From: Escherichia coli
Lineage (GTDB): Bacteria > Pseudomonadota > Gammaproteobacteria > Enterobacterales > Enterobacteriaceae
Assembly: GCF_003334315.1 (NCBI RefSeq)
Contig: NZ_QOWR01000012.1
Length of the DNA: 64,000 nucleotides
Direction: 5' to 3' (one strand)
The stretch's first letter is position 1. Each line of letters starts with the position of its first letter. The notes under the pieces are model-generated. The model made no database searches. It had not been told where the DNA came from and saw nothing but the letters and a program-made list of their open reading frames with translations. The position numbers were made by a program, and so were the translations under genes. This document shows positions 2,362 to 44,583 of this stretch, in pieces.

Positions 2362-3299
2362 TGGTGATGATGTGAATGGCCAGACACCCCTTCATTCAGG
2401 TGGCAGTCTGGCCCATGACAAGGTTGATATTCCATCTGAATGGTGGCGTGCTCAATCTGATAGTGATCCATCAGGTAGTGTTGGATCTGATCCAACAAGG
2501 CATCGTGATCGTGTGGCGGGATCACCTGCACATGCAACGTCATCACCGGCTTCTCGCCTACCATCCATACATGTACATGGTGCACATTGCGGACTTCCGG
2601 GATTTCCCGGCACATACGACGCTTCAGTTCAGCGATATCCAGCGATACCGGTGCACCTTCAAGTAATTCATTCACGCTATCTTTCAACAGTCGCCACGCG
2701 CTACGCAGAACCAGAAGCGACACCAGTATCGAGAGAATGGGGTCAGCAGGTGTCCAGCCAGTCCAGATAATAATCAACGCGGCAATAATAGCCCCAACCG
2801 AACCCAGCAGGTCCCCGAGCACATGCAGTGCCGCTGCTCGTACGTTGAGGTTTTTCTCTTCGCTGCCGTGATGAAGTAACCAGAAAGAAAGTATATTTGC
2901 CAGCAACCCAGCCACGGCAATTGCCATCATCATGCCGCCCTCGACCGGACGCGGCGTGCGGAAGCGTTCTATCGCCTCCCAGACAATCAAAATGGTAATT
3001 ACCACGAGGGCTATGGCATTCACAAACGCCGCGAGCGTGGTCAGTCTTAGCCAACCGAAAGTGTGGCGAATGGTGGGAGGACGACGTGAAAATTGCACGG
3101 CGAGTAGGGCGAAAAGCAGGGCGGCAGTATCGGTCAACATATGACCCGCATCGGCCAGCAATGCCAGAGAACCAGAAAGAAAACCACCAACGACTTCTAC
3201 CAGCATAAACCCGGCAGTCACGCCGAAAGCATACAACAAGCGACGAGCATTATTATCTTCTGGCAGGTGTGAGGACGTGTGTGAGTGTGAGTGCGCCAT
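2358..3299 (-). CDS. zitB: Zn(II) efflux transporter, cation diffusion facilitator family
   Basis: 313-aa ORF with His-rich N-terminus ([11 protein letters not shown]) and C-terminus (GHSHHHH) and CDF-like TM core. Confidence 0.92.
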
Positions 3300-3370
3300 G
3301 ACGAGTCATCCCTTAATTATTCTCACTTAACTTTATGACATCATACTGCTTTTAGAAGTGAAAAATTAAA

Positions 3371-3390
3371 AGGGAGAGACTCCGCTCTCC
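3371..3390 (-). terminator. Putative terminator downstream of ybgS
   Basis: Hairpin gggagag/ctctccc followed by a T-run on the minus strand. Confidence 0.5.
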
Positions 3391-3412
3391 CATTATCGGC
3401 TATTTTGCAGGG

Positions 3413-3793
3413 TTACTGCGTGGTACCGTCGGTTTTGGTATCGACATCATTATTGATGCCATCACCGGTTTGTACCTTTTTATTGATATCCGGACAGCGA
3501 CCATCTTTGCACATGGTGTTCTTGTGCTCTTCATCTTTGGTCATTCCGTCATTGTTCATTGAAGAACCATCCGAATGCAGCATTGTGCCGCCAGAACCGG
3601 TATTTACCCCGTTATTGTCGACGTTATTTGGCGCGACATTTTCACGGGCGTCAGGGGCTACCTGGCCCGCATCAGCTGCGGCGTTTGCCTGGCCGTTATT
3701 AGTTTGCGCTCCGCTATCGGCAGCCAGTGCGGCACCGCTGGCAAGGCTTAGAGTGGCAGTCAGAAATAATGTGGCCAGTTTTGTCATTTTCAT
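3413..3793 (-). CDS. ybgS: Secreted low-complexity protein YbgS
   Basis: 126-aa ORF with signal peptide ([24 protein letters not shown]) and Asn/Gly/Asp-rich mature part. Confidence 0.85.
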
Positions 3794-4020
3794 AGGATGC
3801 TCCTGTTATGGTCGTTATGTCGGATAACCTCTTCCAACAGTGCATTTGCAGGTGAATATAAGGCATTGGTTTAAGATTTCAGCCAGGTTATGAAACGCAG
3901 CAGAGAATCTTGAAATAATTAACAAACAAAGGAGTTACAGTTAGAAATTGTAGGAGAGATCTCGTTTTTCGCGACAATCTGGCGTTTTTCTTGCTAATTC
4001 CAGGATTAATCCGTTCATAG

Positions 4021-4038
4021 TGTAAAACCCCGTTTACA
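4021..4038 (+). promoter_or_regulatory. TyrR box (TGTAAA-N6-TTTACA) in the aroG promoter
   Basis: Perfect match tgtaaaaccccgtttaca about 70 bp upstream of the aroG start. Confidence 0.7.
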
Positions 4039-4108
4039 CATTCTGACGGAAGATATAGATTGGAAGTATTGCATTCACTAAGATAAGTATGGCAACACTG
4101 GAACAGAC

Positions 4109-5161
4109 ATGAATTATCAGAACGACGATTTACGCATCAAAGAAATCAAAGAGTTACTTCCTCCTGTCGCATTGCTGGAAAAATTCCCCGCTACTGAAAA
4201 TGCCGCGAATACGGTTGCCCATGCCCGAAAAGCGATCCATAAGATCCTGAAAGGTAATGATGATCGCCTGTTGGTTGTGATTGGCCCATGCTCAATTCAT
4301 GATCCTGTCGCGGCAAAAGAGTATGCCACTCGCTTGCTGGCGCTGCGTGAAGAGCTGAAAGATGAGCTGGAAATCGTAATGCGCGTCTATTTTGAAAAGC
4401 CGCGTACCACGGTGGGCTGGAAAGGGCTGATTAACGATCCGCATATGGATAATAGCTTCCAGATCAACGACGGTCTGCGTATAGCCCGTAAATTGCTGCT
4501 TGATATTAACGACAGCGGTCTGCCAGCGGCAGGTGAGTTTCTCGATATGATCACCCCACAATATCTCGCTGACCTGATGAGCTGGGGCGCAATTGGCGCA
4601 CGTACCACCGAATCGCAGGTGCACCGCGAACTGGCATCAGGGCTTTCTTGTCCGGTCGGCTTCAAAAATGGCACCGACGGTACGATTAAAGTGGCTATCG
4701 ATGCCATTAATGCCGCCGGTGCGCCGCACTGCTTCCTGTCCGTAACGAAATGGGGGCATTCGGCGATTGTGAATACCAGCGGTAACGGCGATTGCCATAT
4801 CATTCTGCGCGGCGGTAAAGAGCCTAACTACAGCGCGAAGCACGTTGCTGAAGTGAAAGAAGGGCTGAACAAAGCAGGCCTGCCAGCACAGGTGATGATC
4901 GATTTCAGCCATGCTAACTCGTCCAAACAATTCAAAAAGCAGATGGATGTTTGTGCTGACGTTTGCCAGCAGATTGCCGGTGGCGAAAAGGCCATTATTG
5001 GCGTGATGGTGGAAAGCCATCTGGTGGAAGGCAATCAGAGCCTCGAGAGCGGGGAGCCGCTGGCCTACGGTAAGAGCATCACCGATGCCTGCATCGGCTG
5101 GGAAGATACCGATGCTCTGTTACGTCAACTGGCGAATGCAGTAAAAGCGCGTCGCGGGTAA
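4109..5161 (+). CDS. aroG: DAHP synthase, Phe-sensitive
   Basis: 350-aa ORF recognised as AroG (MNYQNDDLRIKEIKELLPP...). Confidence 0.95.
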   Translation: MNYQNDDLRIKEIKELLPPVALLEKFPATENAANTVAHARKAIHKILKGNDDRLLVVIGPCSIHDPVAAKEYATRLLALREELKDELEIVMRVYFEKPRTTVGWKGLINDPHMDNSFQINDGLRIARKLLLDINDSGLPAAGEFLDMITPQYLADLMSWGAIGARTTESQVHRELASGLSCPVGFKNGTDGTIKVAIDAINAAGAPHCFLSVTKWGHSAIVNTSGNGDCHIILRGGKEPNYSAKHVAEVKEGLNKAGLPAQVMIDFSHANSSKQFKKQMDVCADVCQQIAGGEKAIIGVMVESHLVEGNQSLESGEPLAYGKSITDACIGWEDTDALLRQLANAVKARRG

Positions 5162-5170
5162 GGTTTAATT

Positions 5171-5244
5171 GTCGGATGCGCCGTCAGAGTGGCGTATCCG
5201 ATGAATCACCACAGGCCTGATAAGTCGCGCAGCGTCGCATCAGG
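5171..5244. repeat. REP elements (BIME) downstream of aroG
   Basis: Palindromic units cggatgcgcc...ggcgtatccg and gcctgataag...cgcatcaggc. Confidence 0.7.
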
Positions 5245-5267
5245 CAATGTGCTCCATTGTTAGCAAC

Positions 5268-5305
5268 AAAAAAGCCGACTCACTTGCAGTCGGCTTTCTC
5301 ATTTT
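5268..5305. terminator. Bidirectional terminator between convergent aroG and gpmA
   Basis: Stem aaagccgact/agtcggcttt flanked by A-run and T-run. Confidence 0.75.
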
Positions 5306-5318
5306 AAACGAATGACGT

Positions 5319-6071
5319 TTACTTCGCTTTACCCTGGTTTGCAACCGCCGCTGCTTTCGCTGCGATCTCGTCAGCATTACCCAGATAATAGCGTTTCAGC
5401 GGTTTGAAATTCTCGTCGAACTCATACACCAGCGGCACGCCAGTCGGGATATTAAGCTCAAGAATCTCTTCTTCGCTCATGTTATCAAGATATTTCACCA
5501 GCGCACGTAAAGAGTTACCGTGTGCAGCGATGATCACGCGCTCACCGCTCTTCATACGCGGCAGAATAGTTTCATTCCAGTAAGGGATCACGCGGTCAAT
5601 GGTCAGCGCCAGGCTTTCCGTCAGCGGCAGTTCTTTCTCGCTCAGTTTCGCGTAACGCGGATCGTGACCCGGATAACGCTCATCATCTTTAGTCAGTTCC
5701 GGCGGAGTCACTGCAAAACCACGACGCCACTGTTTCACCTGCTCGTCGCCATACTTTTCAGCAGTTTCCGCTTTGTTCAGACCCTGCAACGCACCGTAGT
5801 GACGTTCGTTCAGTTTCCAGGATTTCTCAACGGGCAGCCATGCCTGATCCAGTTCGTCCAGCACATTCCACAGGGTATGGATAGCGCGTTTCAGCACAGA
5901 AGTGTAAGCAAAGTCAAAGCTGTAACCTTCCTCTTTCAGCAGCTTACCTGCTGCTTTTGCTTCGCTTACGCCTTTCTCAGACAGATCCACGTCGTACCAA
6001 CCGGTGAAACGGTTTTCTTTGTTCCACTGACTTTCGCCATGACGAACCAGAACCAGCTTAGTTACAGCCAT
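5319..6071 (-). CDS. gpmA: 2,3-bisphosphoglycerate-dependent phosphoglycerate mutase
   Basis: ORF trimmed to [17 protein letters not shown] (250 aa) with the RHGE phosphohistidine motif. Confidence 0.93.
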
Positions 6072-38259: not shown

Positions 38260-38358
38260 AATTTCACCGCTCAGTACATGCGTTTACGCTGCGTCGATGC
38301 ACAGCCTCATCATTTTGCAGTATCCTTAAGATATTCCTTATATCTTCAGGAGATCGTC

Positions 38359-39063
38359 ATGGACAGATTCCCACGTTCTGATTCAATCGTACAACCCCGG
38401 GCTGGCTTGCAAACTTATATGGCGCAAGTCTATGGCTGGATGACCGTTGGCTTGTTGCTGACCGCATTTGTTGCCTGGTATGCGGCTAATTCCGCGGCCG
38501 TGATGGAGCTGTTGTTCACTAACCGTGTCTTTTTAATCGGTCTGATCATCGCGCAATTAGCATTGGTTATTGTGTTATCAGCGATGATTCAAAAGCTGAG
38601 CGCAGGTGTAACGACGATGCTCTTTATGCTTTATTCGGCGCTGACGGGTCTTACGCTTTCCAGTATATTCATTGTCTATACCGCTGCTTCTATCGCCAGT
38701 ACTTTCGTCGTTACTGCCGGGATGTTCGGCGCAATGAGCCTGTACGGTTACACCACGAAGCGCGATTTAAGTGGCTTTGGCAATATGCTGTTTATGGCGT
38801 TAATCGGCATTGTGCTGGCATCGCTGGTCAACTTCTGGTTGAAAAGCGAAGCATTGATGTGGGCAGTTACCTACATCGGCGTGATTGTCTTTGTCGGATT
38901 GACGGCGTATGACACGCAGAAACTGAAAAATATGGGTGAGCAGATTGATACCCGCGACACGTCGAACCTGCGCAAATATTCCATTCTTGGCGCGTTAACC
39001 TTGTATCTGGACTTCATCAACCTGTTCCTGATGTTGCTGCGAATTTTTGGCAACCGCCGTTAA
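38359..39063 (+). CDS. ybhL: Bax inhibitor-1/YccA-family inner membrane protein
   Basis: ORF trimmed to MDRFPRSDSIVQPR (234 aa); multi-TM. Confidence 0.88.
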   Translation: MDRFPRSDSIVQPRAGLQTYMAQVYGWMTVGLLLTAFVAWYAANSAAVMELLFTNRVFLIGLIIAQLALVIVLSAMIQKLSAGVTTMLFMLYSALTGLTLSSIFIVYTAASIASTFVVTAGMFGAMSLYGYTTKRDLSGFGNMLFMALIGIVLASLVNFWLKSEALMWAVTYIGVIVFVGLTAYDTQKLKNMGEQIDTRDTSNLRKYSILGALTLYLDFINLFLMLLRIFGNRR

Positions 39064-40016: not shown

Positions 40017-40973
40017 TCACATCGCCGCTTCATTTTTCGCCCGTAGCTTCTTCGCCTGGCTTTCCAGCAACAGGTAACAGATCAGCGCCAGCAGCAGTGG
40101 GATAAAGTAATACAGCACACGGTAAGCGAGTAGGGCGGCGATAATTGTACCTTTGGAGGTATGCTCCCCAGCCAGTAGTGCGATAAACACCGCTTCCAGC
40201 ACACCGATCCCCGCCGGAATATGCACGATGACGCCAGCAATACTACTAACCAGTAACACGCCCAGTACAAAGAAATAGTTCACGCTTTGACCAAGTAACA
40301 GCCAGATAATCGCCCCCATTACCATCCAGTTAACGCTGGAAATCAGCATCTGAGCGAGGGCGAATTTCCATGAAGGCAGCACCAGCTTTTGCCCTTTGAT
40401 GGTCATATGGCGGTGCTTCGCGAAAGCGCAAAACCACAAATAAACCGCGATAATCATCAGTAAGCCAATGCCGAGAATACGCAGCGTAGTTTGATCGACA
40501 TACCAGTGATCCGGCAACTCCACCACGCCTGCGGTAAAGATAATCCCTGCCAGTAAAATGTAGCCCAGCCAGTTGGTGGTAATACTGAGCGAGAAAATCC
40601 GCGTAATAGTGCTACCGGGCAACCCCAGACGAGAGTACAAACGATAGCGCATACCAATGCCGCCGACCCAGGTACTGAGCGTCAGGTTGAAGGCGTAGCA
40701 GATAAACGACACCAGCATCACCTGGCGCTTCGCCAGTTTGTGACCGCAGTAAAAGCGGGCGAGCAGGTCATAGCAGCCGTAAATCAGATAGCTGACGACC
40801 ACCAGCCCGACCGCACTAAGCAGCGCAACGCGATTGTAGTCGCGGATGACCTTCCAGACCTCTTCCCAGTCCACTTTTTTGGCGTAGACCACCAGCAACA
40901 CAATCACCGCGATAAAAAACAGCCAGGTGAGGATCTTCTTTGCTAAGCGCCAGCGCGGGTGTGATTTACTCAT
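40017..40973 (-). CDS. ybhN: Inner membrane protein, lysylphosphatidylglycerol-synthase TM-domain-like family
   Basis: 318-aa multi-TM ORF; start overlaps the clsB stop. Confidence 0.85.
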   Translation of the reverse strand: MSKSHPRWRLAKKILTWLFFIAVIVLLVVYAKKVDWEEVWKVIRDYNRVALLSAVGLVVVSYLIYGCYDLLARFYCGHKLAKRQVMLVSFICYAFNLTLSTWVGGIGMRYRLYSRLGLPGSTITRIFSLSITTNWLGYILLAGIIFTAGVVELPDHWYVDQTTLRILGIGLLMIIAVYLWFCAFAKHRHMTIKGQKLVLPSWKFALAQMLISSVNWMVMGAIIWLLLGQSVNYFFVLGVLLVSSIAGVIVHIPAGIGVLEAVFIALLAGEHTSKGTIIAALLAYRVLYYFIPLLLALICYLLLESQAKKLRAKNEAAM

Positions 40974-42214
40974 CAGGGTTTTACCCCCGTGTTTTCAGTT
41001 TCTACCCGATCCTGCGTTTCCATTGTCGGTTGTGCGGGCGGATCAACCTGCGCCAGACGTGGCGTGTGTGCCGGAAGCCAGCCAACCAGCGCCGGGAAGT
41101 GGCGTAAAAAGTGGAACGCCAGCACGCTTTTGGTCAGGTTCCACCAGGTGCGTTTGGGCAGCATGGTTTCATCCACCTGCTGACAATCTGCGGCGATAAT
41201 GCCGTTCAGATTATCGCGCAGCGTCTGGTTAAAATTACGATCGTGGATGATGACATTTGCTTCGAGATTCAGTGACAAACTGAGCGGATCGAGATTACTG
41301 GACCCTACTGTCGCCCAGTGATCGTCCATCAATGCTACTTTGCCGTGGAGCGGGCGGCGGCGGTACTCAAACACCTGAACGCCGCCTTTAACCAGATAGT
41401 TATACAGCAAGCGCGCGCCGACTCTGACAATCGGCATATCCGGTTCGCCCTGAATGATCAGTTTGATCCGCACCCCGCGGCGTGCCGCTTTACGCAAGGC
41501 GTGTAAAAATCGATAGCCGGGGAAGAAGTAGGCGTTGGCGATAATGACTTCCCGCCGCGCCTGAGTGAGCATTTTCAGATAGTGGCGTTCTATATCATCG
41601 CGGTGTTCTTCGTTATCGCGCCAGACCAGCAATACCTGCGCTTCTCCCGGCTGGCGATTTTCTTCCGCTTTGTGATGACGTCGCCACCAGCGTCGTGCCG
41701 CGCTCTGTCCAGGCAGGTTTTCCAGCTCAAACTGGAGAATATCTTCGACAATCGGCCCTTCAAGGCGTACCGCGTAATCCTGTTTAGCCTCTGGACCGTA
41801 GCTGGACATATGCTCGGCGGAGTAATTCAGCCCGCCAATAAAGGCGATACGCGCGTCGATCACCACAATTTTGCGATGCATCCGGCGAAACACATTGGTG
41901 CGCATACCAAAAAGGCGAGGGCGGGGATCGTAGTAGCGAAATACCACGCCAGCTGCCGTCAGTTCATTGACAAACTCATCGCTGAGATCCGGCGAACCGT
42001 AGCCATCCAGCAAGACTTCCGCTTTAACCCCGCGTTGCGCTGCTGCCAGTAGTGCCGCATGCAGCTGTTTGCCGACGTCATCCTCAAACCAGATAAACGT
42101 TTCAAGAATGATGCGTTCTTGTGCCTCGCCAATCGCCTTAAACACCGCGGGATAATATTGCTCGCCGTTTTCCAGCAACTCGATCTTATTGCCTTCACGC
42201 CAGCTACATTTCAT
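40973..42214 (-). CDS. clsB: Cardiolipin synthase B (phospholipase D family)
   Basis: 413-aa ORF with two HKD motifs ([16 protein letters not shown]). Confidence 0.92.
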
Positions 42215-42972
42215 AAATGAATCTCCGCACTTAAAGGGGCATGATCAGAAAGGTGTCGCCATGTCTGCAGCGGCAACGCGGTTGGCGCGCTGGCGCTGGC
42301 ATTTTTGACGTAGATCCTGTCCAGACGTAGTAGAGGAAATTGCACCGGAAACGTGCGCGCCGGGCGTCCGTGGGCGCGGGTAAATATCTCATCCAGTCCG
42401 GCCTGCACTTTTAACGGATGATTAGCTTTTTGCCGCCAGTCATTGAAATCACCCGCCACCAATACCGGTTCGCCGTCCGGTAGCTCATTCACCCATTCGG
42501 CGAGCATCGCAAGCTGCGCCTGACGGTGCGCCTCACGCAGGCCCAGATGTACGCACATCACATGAATCGCTTTTCCGGTCATCGGCGGCACAATGCGGCA
42601 GTAGAGCACGCCGCGCTTTTCCGCACCATCGACCGAAACATCGCGATTCTCATAATGTTCAATGGGATAACGCGACAGTACGGCGTTGCCGTGATGCCCT
42701 TCCGGGTATACGGCATTGCGACCGTAGGCAAAATCGCTCCACATGGTGTCGGCGAGAAACTCGTAGTGCGAGGTATCGGGCCAGTTTTCCACATGCAGCG
42801 GATGAACTTCGTGCGCGCCCATCACTTCCTGCAGGCAAACAATATCGGCGCTGACGGTACGCACGGCATCGCGAAGTTCCGGCAAAATGAAGCGTCGGTT
42901 AAACGCGGTAAAGCCTTTGTGAATGTTGATGGTGAGCACCTTGAACGAAAATTGTTGTGTTTGATCGGGCAT
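42211..42972 (-). CDS. ybhP: Endonuclease/exonuclease/phosphatase-family protein
   Basis: 253-aa ORF; stop overlaps the clsB start by 4 nt. Confidence 0.85.
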
Positions 42973-43104
42973 AATTTTCCTGTCTTTGCCTCTTATCTCA
43001 TTGAAATAGTGTAGTCGGCGTCACAAAAAGGTGCGGTCTTACGGAATTTTCCGTAAAGTTCGGTACTCTGAGTAAGTAGAGATAAATTCTTCAGGAGAGA
43101 AGCC

Positions 43105-43515
43105 ATGAAGTGGCAACAACGTGTTCGTGTCGCAACGGGTCTAAGTTGCTGGCAGATTATGTTGCATTTACTGGTAGTGGCGCTGCTGGTGGTGGGCTGG
43201 ATGAGTAAGACTCTGGTTCACGTCGGCGTGGGATTATGCGCACTGTATTGTGTCACGGTAGTGATGATGCTGGTGTTTCAGCGCCACCCCGAGCAACGCT
43301 GGCGTGAGGTGGCAGACGTGCTGGAAGAGCTGACCACGACCTGGTATTTTGGCGCAGCGCTGATTGTGCTGTGGCTGTTGTCCCGCGTTCTGGAAAACAA
43401 CTTTTTGCTGGCAATTGCAGGGCTGGCAATCCTTGCCGGCCCGGCGGTAGTGTCTTTGCTGGCGAAAGATAAGAAGTTACATCACCTTACGTCTAAACAT
43501 CGCGTACGCCGCTGA
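43105..43515 (+). CDS. ybhQ: Inner membrane protein YbhQ
   Basis: 136-aa hydrophobic ORF; 3' end overlaps the convergent ybhR. Confidence 0.82.
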
Positions 43516-44583
43516 CCCTGTCGTGGCCGTTATCACCAGTAGCGGCCACAAACTATTCCACACAATATCCAGACTCGCATCCTTCAAATAAATCTGCTTG
43601 GTAATGTCCGTAAAGTGGCGAATAGGGTTAATCCACGTCAGGTTTTGCAGCCAAACTGGCATGTTTTCCACCGGCGAAACGTAACCGGAAAGGAGAATGG
43701 CGGGCATCATAAAGACAAACACGCCGATAAACGCCTGCTGTTGTGTCGAGCAGAGTGATGAAATCAACAGACCGAATCCCACCAGCGATAAACCGTAAAT
43801 CACCATCGTAAAGTAGAACAGCGCCAGCGATCCGGCGAAGGGGATTTGATACGCCCAGATACCAATCGCCAGCACAATGGTGGCCTGGAAGGTGGCGACA
43901 ATTAACGCCGGTACGGCTTTGCCGATGAAGATCTGCCAGGTGGTGAGCGGCGAAACCAGTAGCTGATCGAGCGTACCTTGTTCACGTTCGCGGGCGACGG
44001 AAAGTGAAGTGACGATCATTACGCCGATAGTGGTGATCATGGCGATCAGCGACGGCACCACAAACCATTTGTAGTCGAGATTCGGGTTATACCAGTTGCG
44101 TACTACCAGCTCGCTGTTGTTAGGTTTCGGTTTTCCTTCCAGCAGCTCCTGCTGATAATTTTTGACGATCTGTTGCAGGTAGTTGGCGGCAATCTGCGCA
44201 CTGTTGGAGTTACGCCCGTCGAGGATCAACTGCAAAGGCGCGGTCTGGAAGGTATCCAGTTTGCGCGAGAAGTCAGCCGGGAAACGCACCAGTAGTAACG
44301 CCTTTTGTGTGTCGATGGTTGGGCGGATCTCCTGTGGGCTTTTCAGCAGCAGCACATGAGTAAAGGCGCTGGCGCGGGCAAAACGTTGGGTCAGCTCCAC
44401 CGAATGCTCGCCGTTATCTTCATCGTAGATGGCGATGGTGGCGTTAGTCACTTCCAGCGTGGCGGCGAACGGGAACAGGATCACCTGAATTAGCACGGGT
44501 AAAATCAGAATCGCGCGGGTTTGTGGTTCGCGCAGCAACGACTGCAACTCTTTGCGGATTAACGTCCATAAGCGATGAAACAT
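43477..44583 (-). CDS. ybhR: ABC-2 type exporter permease
   Basis: 368-aa membrane ORF; last gene of cecR-ybhG-ybhF-ybhS-ybhR. Confidence 0.9.

Follow-up and report, generated by a model that had tools for sequence, protein, structure and literature searches.

How new or modified phospholipids move across the bacterial inner membrane is still poorly understood. In the aminoacyl-phosphatidylglycerol synthase/flippase MprF, subdomain 1, which consists of transmembrane helices (TM) 1-8, is the part required for flipping, and the YRxxY motif of these proteins has been defined (PMC8131360). The MprF of Pseudomonas aeruginosa (PaMprF) is an energy-independent, promiscuous scramblase, and the study that described it cites YbhN of Escherichia coli as a free-standing transport domain (PMC11980842). 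YbhN has also been named PplT and was stated to be encoded in Enterobacteriaceae in an operon with YbhP and ClsB (bioRxiv 10.1101/2022.03.11.483950). Here, we analyzed this ybhP-clsB-ybhN operon in a stretch of 64,000 nucleotides (nt) of E. coli DNA (RefSeq assembly GCF_003334315.1, contig NZ_QOWR01000012.1), which is called the window below. We favor, with moderate confidence, the reading that the three genes form a stress-induced operon in which ClsB and YbhN would be the synthase and the scramblase of a split, MprF-like pair, and YbhP would process a lipid headgroup. The operon and its link to the MprF flippase have already been described, and the window re-finds a known E. coli operon; what is added here is the gene order in other bacteria, the conservation of the gene junctions, the fusions of the first two genes, and the replacement of the membrane partner by a DedA/VTT protein.

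The three genes are consecutive open reading frames (ORFs) on the minus strand at 40017-42972, in the order ybhP-clsB-ybhN, as seen in the ORF listing and in the sequence, and the RefSeq annotation of an identical E. coli genome gives the same starts, stops and names for all three:

42211-42972, minus strand: ybhP, 253 amino acids (aa), a predicted cytoplasmic, Mg2+-dependent phosphoesterase of the endonuclease/exonuclease/phosphatase (EEP) fold.
40973-42214, minus strand: clsB, 413 aa, a transphosphatidylase of the phospholipase D (PLD) superfamily (cardiolipin synthase B).
40017-40973, minus strand: ybhN (pplT), 318 aa, a polytopic inner-membrane protein, homologue of MprF transmembrane subdomain 1.

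The 3.2-kb stretch is 100% identical in many E. coli chromosomes and is found in 5424 of 5426 complete E. coli genomes; therefore, it belongs to the E. coli core genome.

To follow the operon beyond E. coli, the YbhP alignment was run against one genome per species, which gave 80 loci spanning Enterobacterales, Pseudomonas, Comamonadaceae and other Burkholderiales, Xanthomonadales, Cellvibrio and Alcanivorax. In 67 of the 80 loci, the gene immediately downstream of ybhP on the same strand is a clsB homologue, and in 60 of these 67, a ybhN homologue directly follows clsB on the same strand. Among the other seven, six contigs end before the position of ybhN, and in one locus (L077) ybhN is on the opposite strand, upstream. 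The link between YbhP and ClsB persists in altered forms at about 40% identity. At least five distinct proteins fuse an EEP to a PLD domain. They share 25-42% identity with the query fusion P0216, and their domain order equals the gene order; the PLD half of one of them is ClsB-like (E=1e-34), and one fusion is directly followed by a YbhN-like gene with a PF03706 domain. Judged from these fusions and from gene order, YbhP is tied firmly to ClsB-type enzymes. In two metagenomic contigs (L002 and L003), a DedA/VTT-domain gene adjoins the EEP and PLD genes, with a 4-nt overlap with the EEP gene in L002; since relatives of DedA are known scramblases (PMC11980842), this adjacency suggests a non-homologous replacement of the membrane partner. 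In two further metagenomic loci (L084, at 2947-5753, and L085), an inositol-monophosphatase-family gene, a ClsB-like PLD gene (27% identity) and a YbhP-like EEP gene follow one another on one strand.

Several single loci depart from the common arrangement. A Cellvibrio metagenome-assembled genome (MAG) has the clsB-ybhN pair tandemly duplicated downstream of a single ybhP (L059, 6750-11299), and a Ramlibacter MAG has two consecutive ybhN-like genes (L054, 8105-9984). A 389-aa protein from an ENA metagenome (P0033) joins an enterobacterial-type YbhP (84% identity) to PLD domains in one protein call; it probably arose from a frameshift or an assembly error at the ATGA junction, in contrast to the natural fusions P0216, P0271 and P0272. 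A 2043-bp contig assigned to Crocosphaera watsonii WH 8501 (ctg24, NZ_AADV02000322.1, L004) carries ybhP and the start of clsB with 100% aa identity to the E. coli window; E. coli DNA has almost certainly contaminated this cyanobacterial assembly. P0262 was considered as a further example of the triad and was rejected, its upstream ORF not being PLD-like.

YbhN matches the Pfam family LPG_synthase_TM (PF03706, E=4.6e-15). It aligns to residues 40-342 of PaMprF (9goe, E=3.4e-22) and also to the MprF structures 7f47 and 6lvf/7duw, Rhizobium MprF included, with E values ranging from 3e-22 to 2e-17. Against the NCBIfam MprF model NF033480, it covers positions 3-301 of 841 with 164 bits, where the cutoff is 600. 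The chain has about eight hydrophobic segments, and its last residue, 318, follows the eighth helix; by its length and by the model coverage, it lacks both subdomain 2 of MprF (TM9-14) and the C-terminal aminoacyl-phosphatidylglycerol synthase domain. On the strength of these alignments, YbhN is a relative of the MprF flippase module and not an MprF. The salt bridge that links TM7 with TM8 of MprF (E295-R319 in PaMprF) aligns to E260 and R285 of YbhN, and the YRxxY motif aligns to Y284-R285-V-L-Y288; E260, R285 and Y288 are at least 95% conserved among 62 orthologues. In the bacterial two-hybrid (BACTH) assay, YbhN interacts with ClsB and with PgpA, PgpB and PgpC, and deletion of ybhN lowers fitness, with a defect in late-log growth and in competition (bioRxiv 10.1101/2022.03.11.483950).

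The contacts of YbhN with the three Pgp proteins also fit another explanation, which is that YbhN is a general housekeeping scramblase for bulk phosphatidylethanolamine (PE), phosphatidylglycerol (PG) and cardiolipin, and that its adjacency to clsB reflects shared stress regulation and not a dedicated hand-over. The authors of the two-hybrid study propose such a general homeostatic role (bioRxiv 10.1101/2022.03.11.483950), PaMprF scrambles many lipids unspecifically (PMC11980842), and proteins with a PF03706 domain are widespread without ClsB. However, two proteobacterial classes share the order clsB then ybhN with its overlapping junctions, a PF03706 gene directly follows an EEP-PLD fusion, and stationary phase and stress induce the operon, whereas a bulk scramblase would be expected to be constitutive. 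We consider the general role rather unlikely and prefer a YbhN that would serve ClsB.

ClsB matches the NCBIfam ClsB equivalog model NF008427 with 750.7 bits (cutoff 281) over residues 1-408, and a regular-expression search found two HKD motifs, H113-x-K-x4-D-x6-GG-x-N and H290-x-K-x4-D-x6-GS-x-N:

41825-41878, minus strand: ClsB HKD motif 1, residues 113-130 (regular expression, codon position checked in the sequence).
41294-41347, minus strand: ClsB HKD motif 2, residues 290-307 (regular expression).

H290 is the residue that was mutated to inactivate Salmonella ClsB, the clsB H290A plasmid being the catalytically dead control (PMC9241728). The protein has no hydrophobic segment and no N-terminal transmembrane helix, with no 19-residue window reaching a Kyte-Doolittle value of 1.6, and missing N-terminal transmembrane helices are the criterion that separates ClsB and ClsC from ClsA; a ClsB without a membrane helix agrees with an earlier report (PMC12846801). 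A PDB sequence search with ClsB gave no match at E<=0.001. The published products of ClsB are cardiolipin, PG and the trehalose phospholipids phosphatidyltrehalose (PT) and diphosphatidyltrehalose (diPT) (PMC6446866, PMC9241728). This promiscuous enzyme is indispensable for 6-phosphatidyltrehalose and 6,6'-diphosphatidyltrehalose, though not for bulk cardiolipin, and differences between strains were ascribed to "as-yet-unknown additional requirements" (PMC6446866). When the Salmonella "whole clsB operon" ybhP-clsB-ybhN was supplied on a plasmid, cardiolipin was restored and overproduced (PMC9241728).

YbhP matches the Pfam family Exo_endo_phos (PF03372, E=6e-23) over residues 14-244. Among 74 sequences, residues N16, E49, H94, N96, D175, N177, D218, D243 and H244 show either no variation or at least 90% conservation, and YbhP keeps all metal-binding and catalytic residues of the EEP enzymes (N, E, H/N, D-x-N, D and S-D-H). 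An AlphaFold model made with the 74-sequence alignment shows the four-layer alpha/beta sandwich of the EEP fold, while the single-sequence model was unusable (predicted local distance difference test score, pLDDT, of 52.5). No signal peptide, membrane anchor or hydrophobic hairpin was found in YbhP, and we predict it to be an active cytoplasmic Mg2+-phosphoesterase.

Its substrate could lie outside lipid metabolism altogether, with YbhP acting on nucleic acids as a DNase, an RNase or a repair phosphodiesterase that is merely co-transcribed with clsB. YbhP has been labelled a 'predicted DNase' (PMC2907692), its only PDB sequence match is exonuclease III (E=0.0065), the top structural neighbours of the model include TDP2, nocturnin and CNOT6L, and lone paralogues occur without clsB. 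Exonuclease III and sphingomyelinases are among the nearest folds too; the fold searches did not separate lipid from nucleic-acid EEP enzymes, and the latter score equally well. Set beside the fusions and the shared gene order with ClsB-type enzymes, a nucleic-acid role appears to us very doubtful. For a YbhP that works on lipids, the most economical idea, which is only a guess, is a phospholipase C/sphingomyelinase-like or headgroup-phosphatase step on a substrate or product of ClsB.

The lone YbhP paralogues of Pseudomonas have neighbourhoods of their own. Those of L052, L058, L060, L063, L065 and L069, and likewise the one in locus L020, stand directly after a PIG-L-type deacetylase gene, and the neighbourhoods often include genes for a family 2 glycosyltransferase (GT2) and for a protein resembling S-adenosylmethionine (SAM)-dependent methyltransferases. 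These paralogues may represent another glycolipid or headgroup context for the EEP family.

The initial annotation of the window, made from the sequence, had called ClsB a PLD-type enzyme with two HKD motifs, YbhP an EEP-fold phosphoesterase and YbhN a polytopic relative of the MprF transmembrane domain. All three assignments hold, the last one for subdomain 1 only. It had further joined the three into a lipid-modification module, which is borne out by the published operon, two-hybrid and complementation results and by the synteny and fusions found here, but which was not an open find, since it had already been described. The remark that the joint function is not obvious from sequence remains valid, in particular for the role of YbhP. 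Two checks that it had proposed exist in the literature in whole or in large part: the YbhN-ClsB interaction has been published (bioRxiv 10.1101/2022.03.11.483950), and the comparison of YbhN with the MprF flippase was largely done by others, to which we add the alignment to TM1-8 of solved MprFs.

Published expression data place the operon under stress control. RpoS dependence is 251-fold for ybhP and 7-fold for ybhO (PMC2907692), and clsB is up about 9-fold in late stationary phase (PMC12846801). An inhibitor of LolCDE induces ybhP, clsB and ybhN 17.6-, 12.3- and 4.4-fold, respectively, together with Rcs, Cpx and sigma-S genes (PMC5105897). In Salmonella, the spacer between ybhP and ybhQ holds a sigma-E chromatin immunoprecipitation (ChIP) peak (PMC4577112). 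Two candidate control elements lie upstream of ybhP in the window:

43008-43014, minus strand: CTACACT, a candidate sigma-S-type -10 element, 35 nt upstream of the ybhP ATG (read from the sequence).
43039-43056, no strand assigned: a perfect 18-bp palindrome (8+2+8), TTACGGAAAATTCCGTAA, a candidate operator in the divergent ybhP-ybhQ spacer.

CTACACT fits the sigma-S -10 consensus. Genera from Escherichia to Pantoea keep the block TTGTGAC-N4-ACTACA, and the '5' promoter' primer of the Salmonella complementation plasmid begins at the CTACACT motif (PMC9241728). The palindrome is unique in the window, where 0.07 matches are expected by chance, and is conserved in Escherichia, Citrobacter, Enterobacter, Pseudescherichia and Superficieibacter. 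Its core GGA-N4-TCC resembles an RcsB box. From this resemblance and the co-induction of ybhP with the Rcs regulon (PMC5105897), the palindrome may be an RcsB-type operator for one or both of the divergent genes. A search by eye for a sigma-E promoter found only a -35-like hexamer, GAACTT (43056-43061), and no convincing -10 element, and no call was made.

The junctions between the three genes are as follows:

42211-42214, minus strand: ATGA junction, where the ybhP stop TGA and the clsB start ATG overlap by 4 nt.
40971-40975, minus strand: TGATG junction, where the clsB stop TGA and the ybhN start ATG share 1 nt, base 40973.

Both overlaps had been given in the initial annotation; the sequence confirms them, and the RefSeq boundaries are identical. 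An overlap of the start codon with the preceding stop is possible at 53 of the 67 ybhP-clsB junctions and at 49 of the 56 resolvable clsB-ybhN junctions; these counts are upper estimates, as the choice of start codons was heuristic, and at both junctions the conserved overlap exceeds the frame expectation of about one third. A GGAG lies 8 nt upstream of the clsB ATG, within ybhP, and the ybhN start is preceded by a weak, distant G-run only. Translational coupling of ybhP, clsB and ybhN is plausible in our judgment. The claim of stoichiometric co-expression that had been attached to the overlaps is not supported, because an overlap permits coupling without fixing a ratio, and the reported fold-changes fall along the operon, which argues against equal expression.

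The overlaps might also be a by-product of compact operon packing without any coupling, clsB and ybhN having ribosome-binding sites of their own and possibly internal promoters. In the window, moaC/moaD, ybhF/ybhS and ybhG/ybhF each overlap by 8 nt, so that short overlaps are not unusual alone, and the neighbouring operons often have overlaps of 1, 4 or 8 nt; the GGAG before clsB is well spaced; the fold-changes (251 versus 7, and 17.6, 12.3 and 4.4) suggest that the genes are expressed unequally or in part independently; and a weak in-vitro sigma-28 signal is listed between ybhO and ybhP from systematic evolution of ligands by exponential enrichment (SELEX) (PMC5493296). However, the overlap is conserved far above frame expectation, the poor and distant purine run before the ybhN start would favor termination-reinitiation, and a consensus scan of the cluster gave no sigma-70-like promoter on its minus strand, which is weak negative evidence only. 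For independent promoters inside the cluster, which the initial annotation had named as evidence against its proposal, there is no sigma-70 consensus on this strand, and the unequal fold-changes may point to them. The SELEX signal is not taken as an internal promoter, because the near sigma-28 -10 element GCCGATAT within ybhP, which was considered and rejected, has no matching -35 element. Terminator-like sites in the scan numbered 9 versus 4.8 expected (standard deviation 2.3), no significant excess over shuffled sequences, and the count of sigma-70 promoter matches did not exceed that of shuffled sequences either. Packing without coupling therefore seems to us somewhat improbable, and we retain coupling as the plausible reading.

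Taken together, these results suggest the following model. One stress-induced transcription unit would start from a sigma-S-type promoter upstream of ybhP and would probably respond to envelope stress as well. The overlapping stop and start codons would let ribosomes pass on, so that all three proteins are made together, in amounts that are not necessarily equal. ClsB, as a soluble or peripheral protein, would work on the cytoplasmic side of the inner membrane and swap phospholipid headgroups there, converting PG and PG to cardiolipin or PE and glycerol to PG, or transferring phosphatidyl groups to trehalose to give PT and diPT. It would dock on YbhN, the eight-helix equivalent of the MprF scramblase subdomain, and YbhN, we infer, would move the bulky or anionic ClsB products to the periplasmic leaflet; the operon would then be a split, non-covalent counterpart of MprF. 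YbhP would act on the same lipid pool, most likely trimming or recycling a substrate or product of ClsB by a phospholipase-C/sphingomyelinase-like or headgroup-phosphatase reaction. Our confidence in any particular YbhP reaction is much less than in the overall model.

A number of observations weigh against this model. In the experiments on trehalose phospholipids, a plasmid with clsB alone restored PT and diPT in part (PMC6446866), so the chemistry of ClsB does not strictly depend on co-expressed partners. The lipid pattern in thin-layer chromatography (TLC) is unchanged in the ybhN mutant (bioRxiv 10.1101/2022.03.11.483950), and lipid translocation has been experimentally shown for MprF proteins only (PMC11980842). 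The nearest folds of YbhP include nucleic-acid enzymes, so its fold gives no pointer to a lipid substrate. Transcript fold-changes are unequal along the operon (PMC2907692, PMC5105897). In about 13 of the 80 loci, mostly second copies in Pseudomonas, a YbhP paralogue stands without an adjoining clsB or ybhN. A context look-up found no recognisable flippase neighbour for the fusions P0271, P0274 and P0284, and the cluster of L084 and L085 is without YbhN and has its gene order reversed relative to E. coli. Partner genes are also missing in several distant contexts, such as P0136, which has no lipid neighbours, and P0212, where a DUF2238 gene is the only neighbour noted.

A wider version of the split-pair model would make the triad a conserved three-enzyme pathway of beta- and gammaproteobacteria for a stress-induced, non-canonical surface lipid, for example PT or diPT, in which the headgroup is built by ClsB and edited or recycled by YbhP, and YbhN carries the product across the inner membrane, with other phyla using EEP-PLD fusions and a DedA/VTT flippase; we regard this extension as speculative and, at present, unlikely. 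The trehalose phospholipids made by ClsB are immunologically active Mincle ligands. If YbhN and YbhP were the additional requirements for PT and diPT, the operon would give simple genetic access both to lipid scrambling and to a glycolipid that the host recognises. The remaining interest lies in the biochemical role of YbhP, a directly testable question, and in the fusions and the partner swap.

The operon is flanked by moaABCDE-ybhL-ybhM on one side and by ybhQ and ybhRSFG-cecR on the other side. The genes ybhQ (43105-43515, plus strand) and ybhR (43477-44583, minus strand) are convergent, and their 3' ends overlap by 39 nt (43477-43515); therefore, the ends of their transcripts would be mutually antisense. 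The mechanical ORF of ybhL (38278-39063 of the window) starts at an upstream ATG and encodes 261 aa, and the RefSeq product has 234 aa; the longer start is probably not real, because the RefSeq start sits 81 nt downstream.

Among described systems, MprF (structures 7DUW and 9GOE) is the closest. YbhN shares with it subdomain 1 (TM1-8), the Glu-Arg salt bridge and YRxxY, and in both systems a cytoplasmic enzyme that modifies lipid headgroups is paired with a membrane module, as ClsB and YbhN interact in the BACTH assay. In contrast to MprF, the synthase of the operon is a separate polypeptide of unrelated fold, which uses PLD-type transphosphatidylation and not tRNA-dependent aminoacylation, a third enzyme, the EEP-type YbhP, is present, and YbhN is without subdomain 2. 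A second parallel is the E. coli ymdB-clsC operon, in which, as reportedly found by Tan et al. in 2012, full ClsC activity depends on the upstream neighbour YmdB. Both operons have a stationary-phase, PLD-type cardiolipin synthase without membrane helices directly downstream of a gene for a soluble protein of hydrolase fold; however, YmdB is a macrodomain protein, whereas YbhP is an EEP enzyme, and ymdB-clsC is without a flippase-like gene. Compared with the neutral sphingomyelinases and bacterial sphingomyelinase C, which are phospholipase-C-type enzymes of the EEP fold, YbhP has about 20% sequence identity. Finally, proteins of the DedA/VTT group (TMEM41B, VMP1 and bacterial DedA) are not homologous to YbhN, and the E. 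coli operon has no VTT gene, but their genes adjoin YbhP-like and ClsB-like genes in L002 and L003, which suggests a role like that of YbhN.

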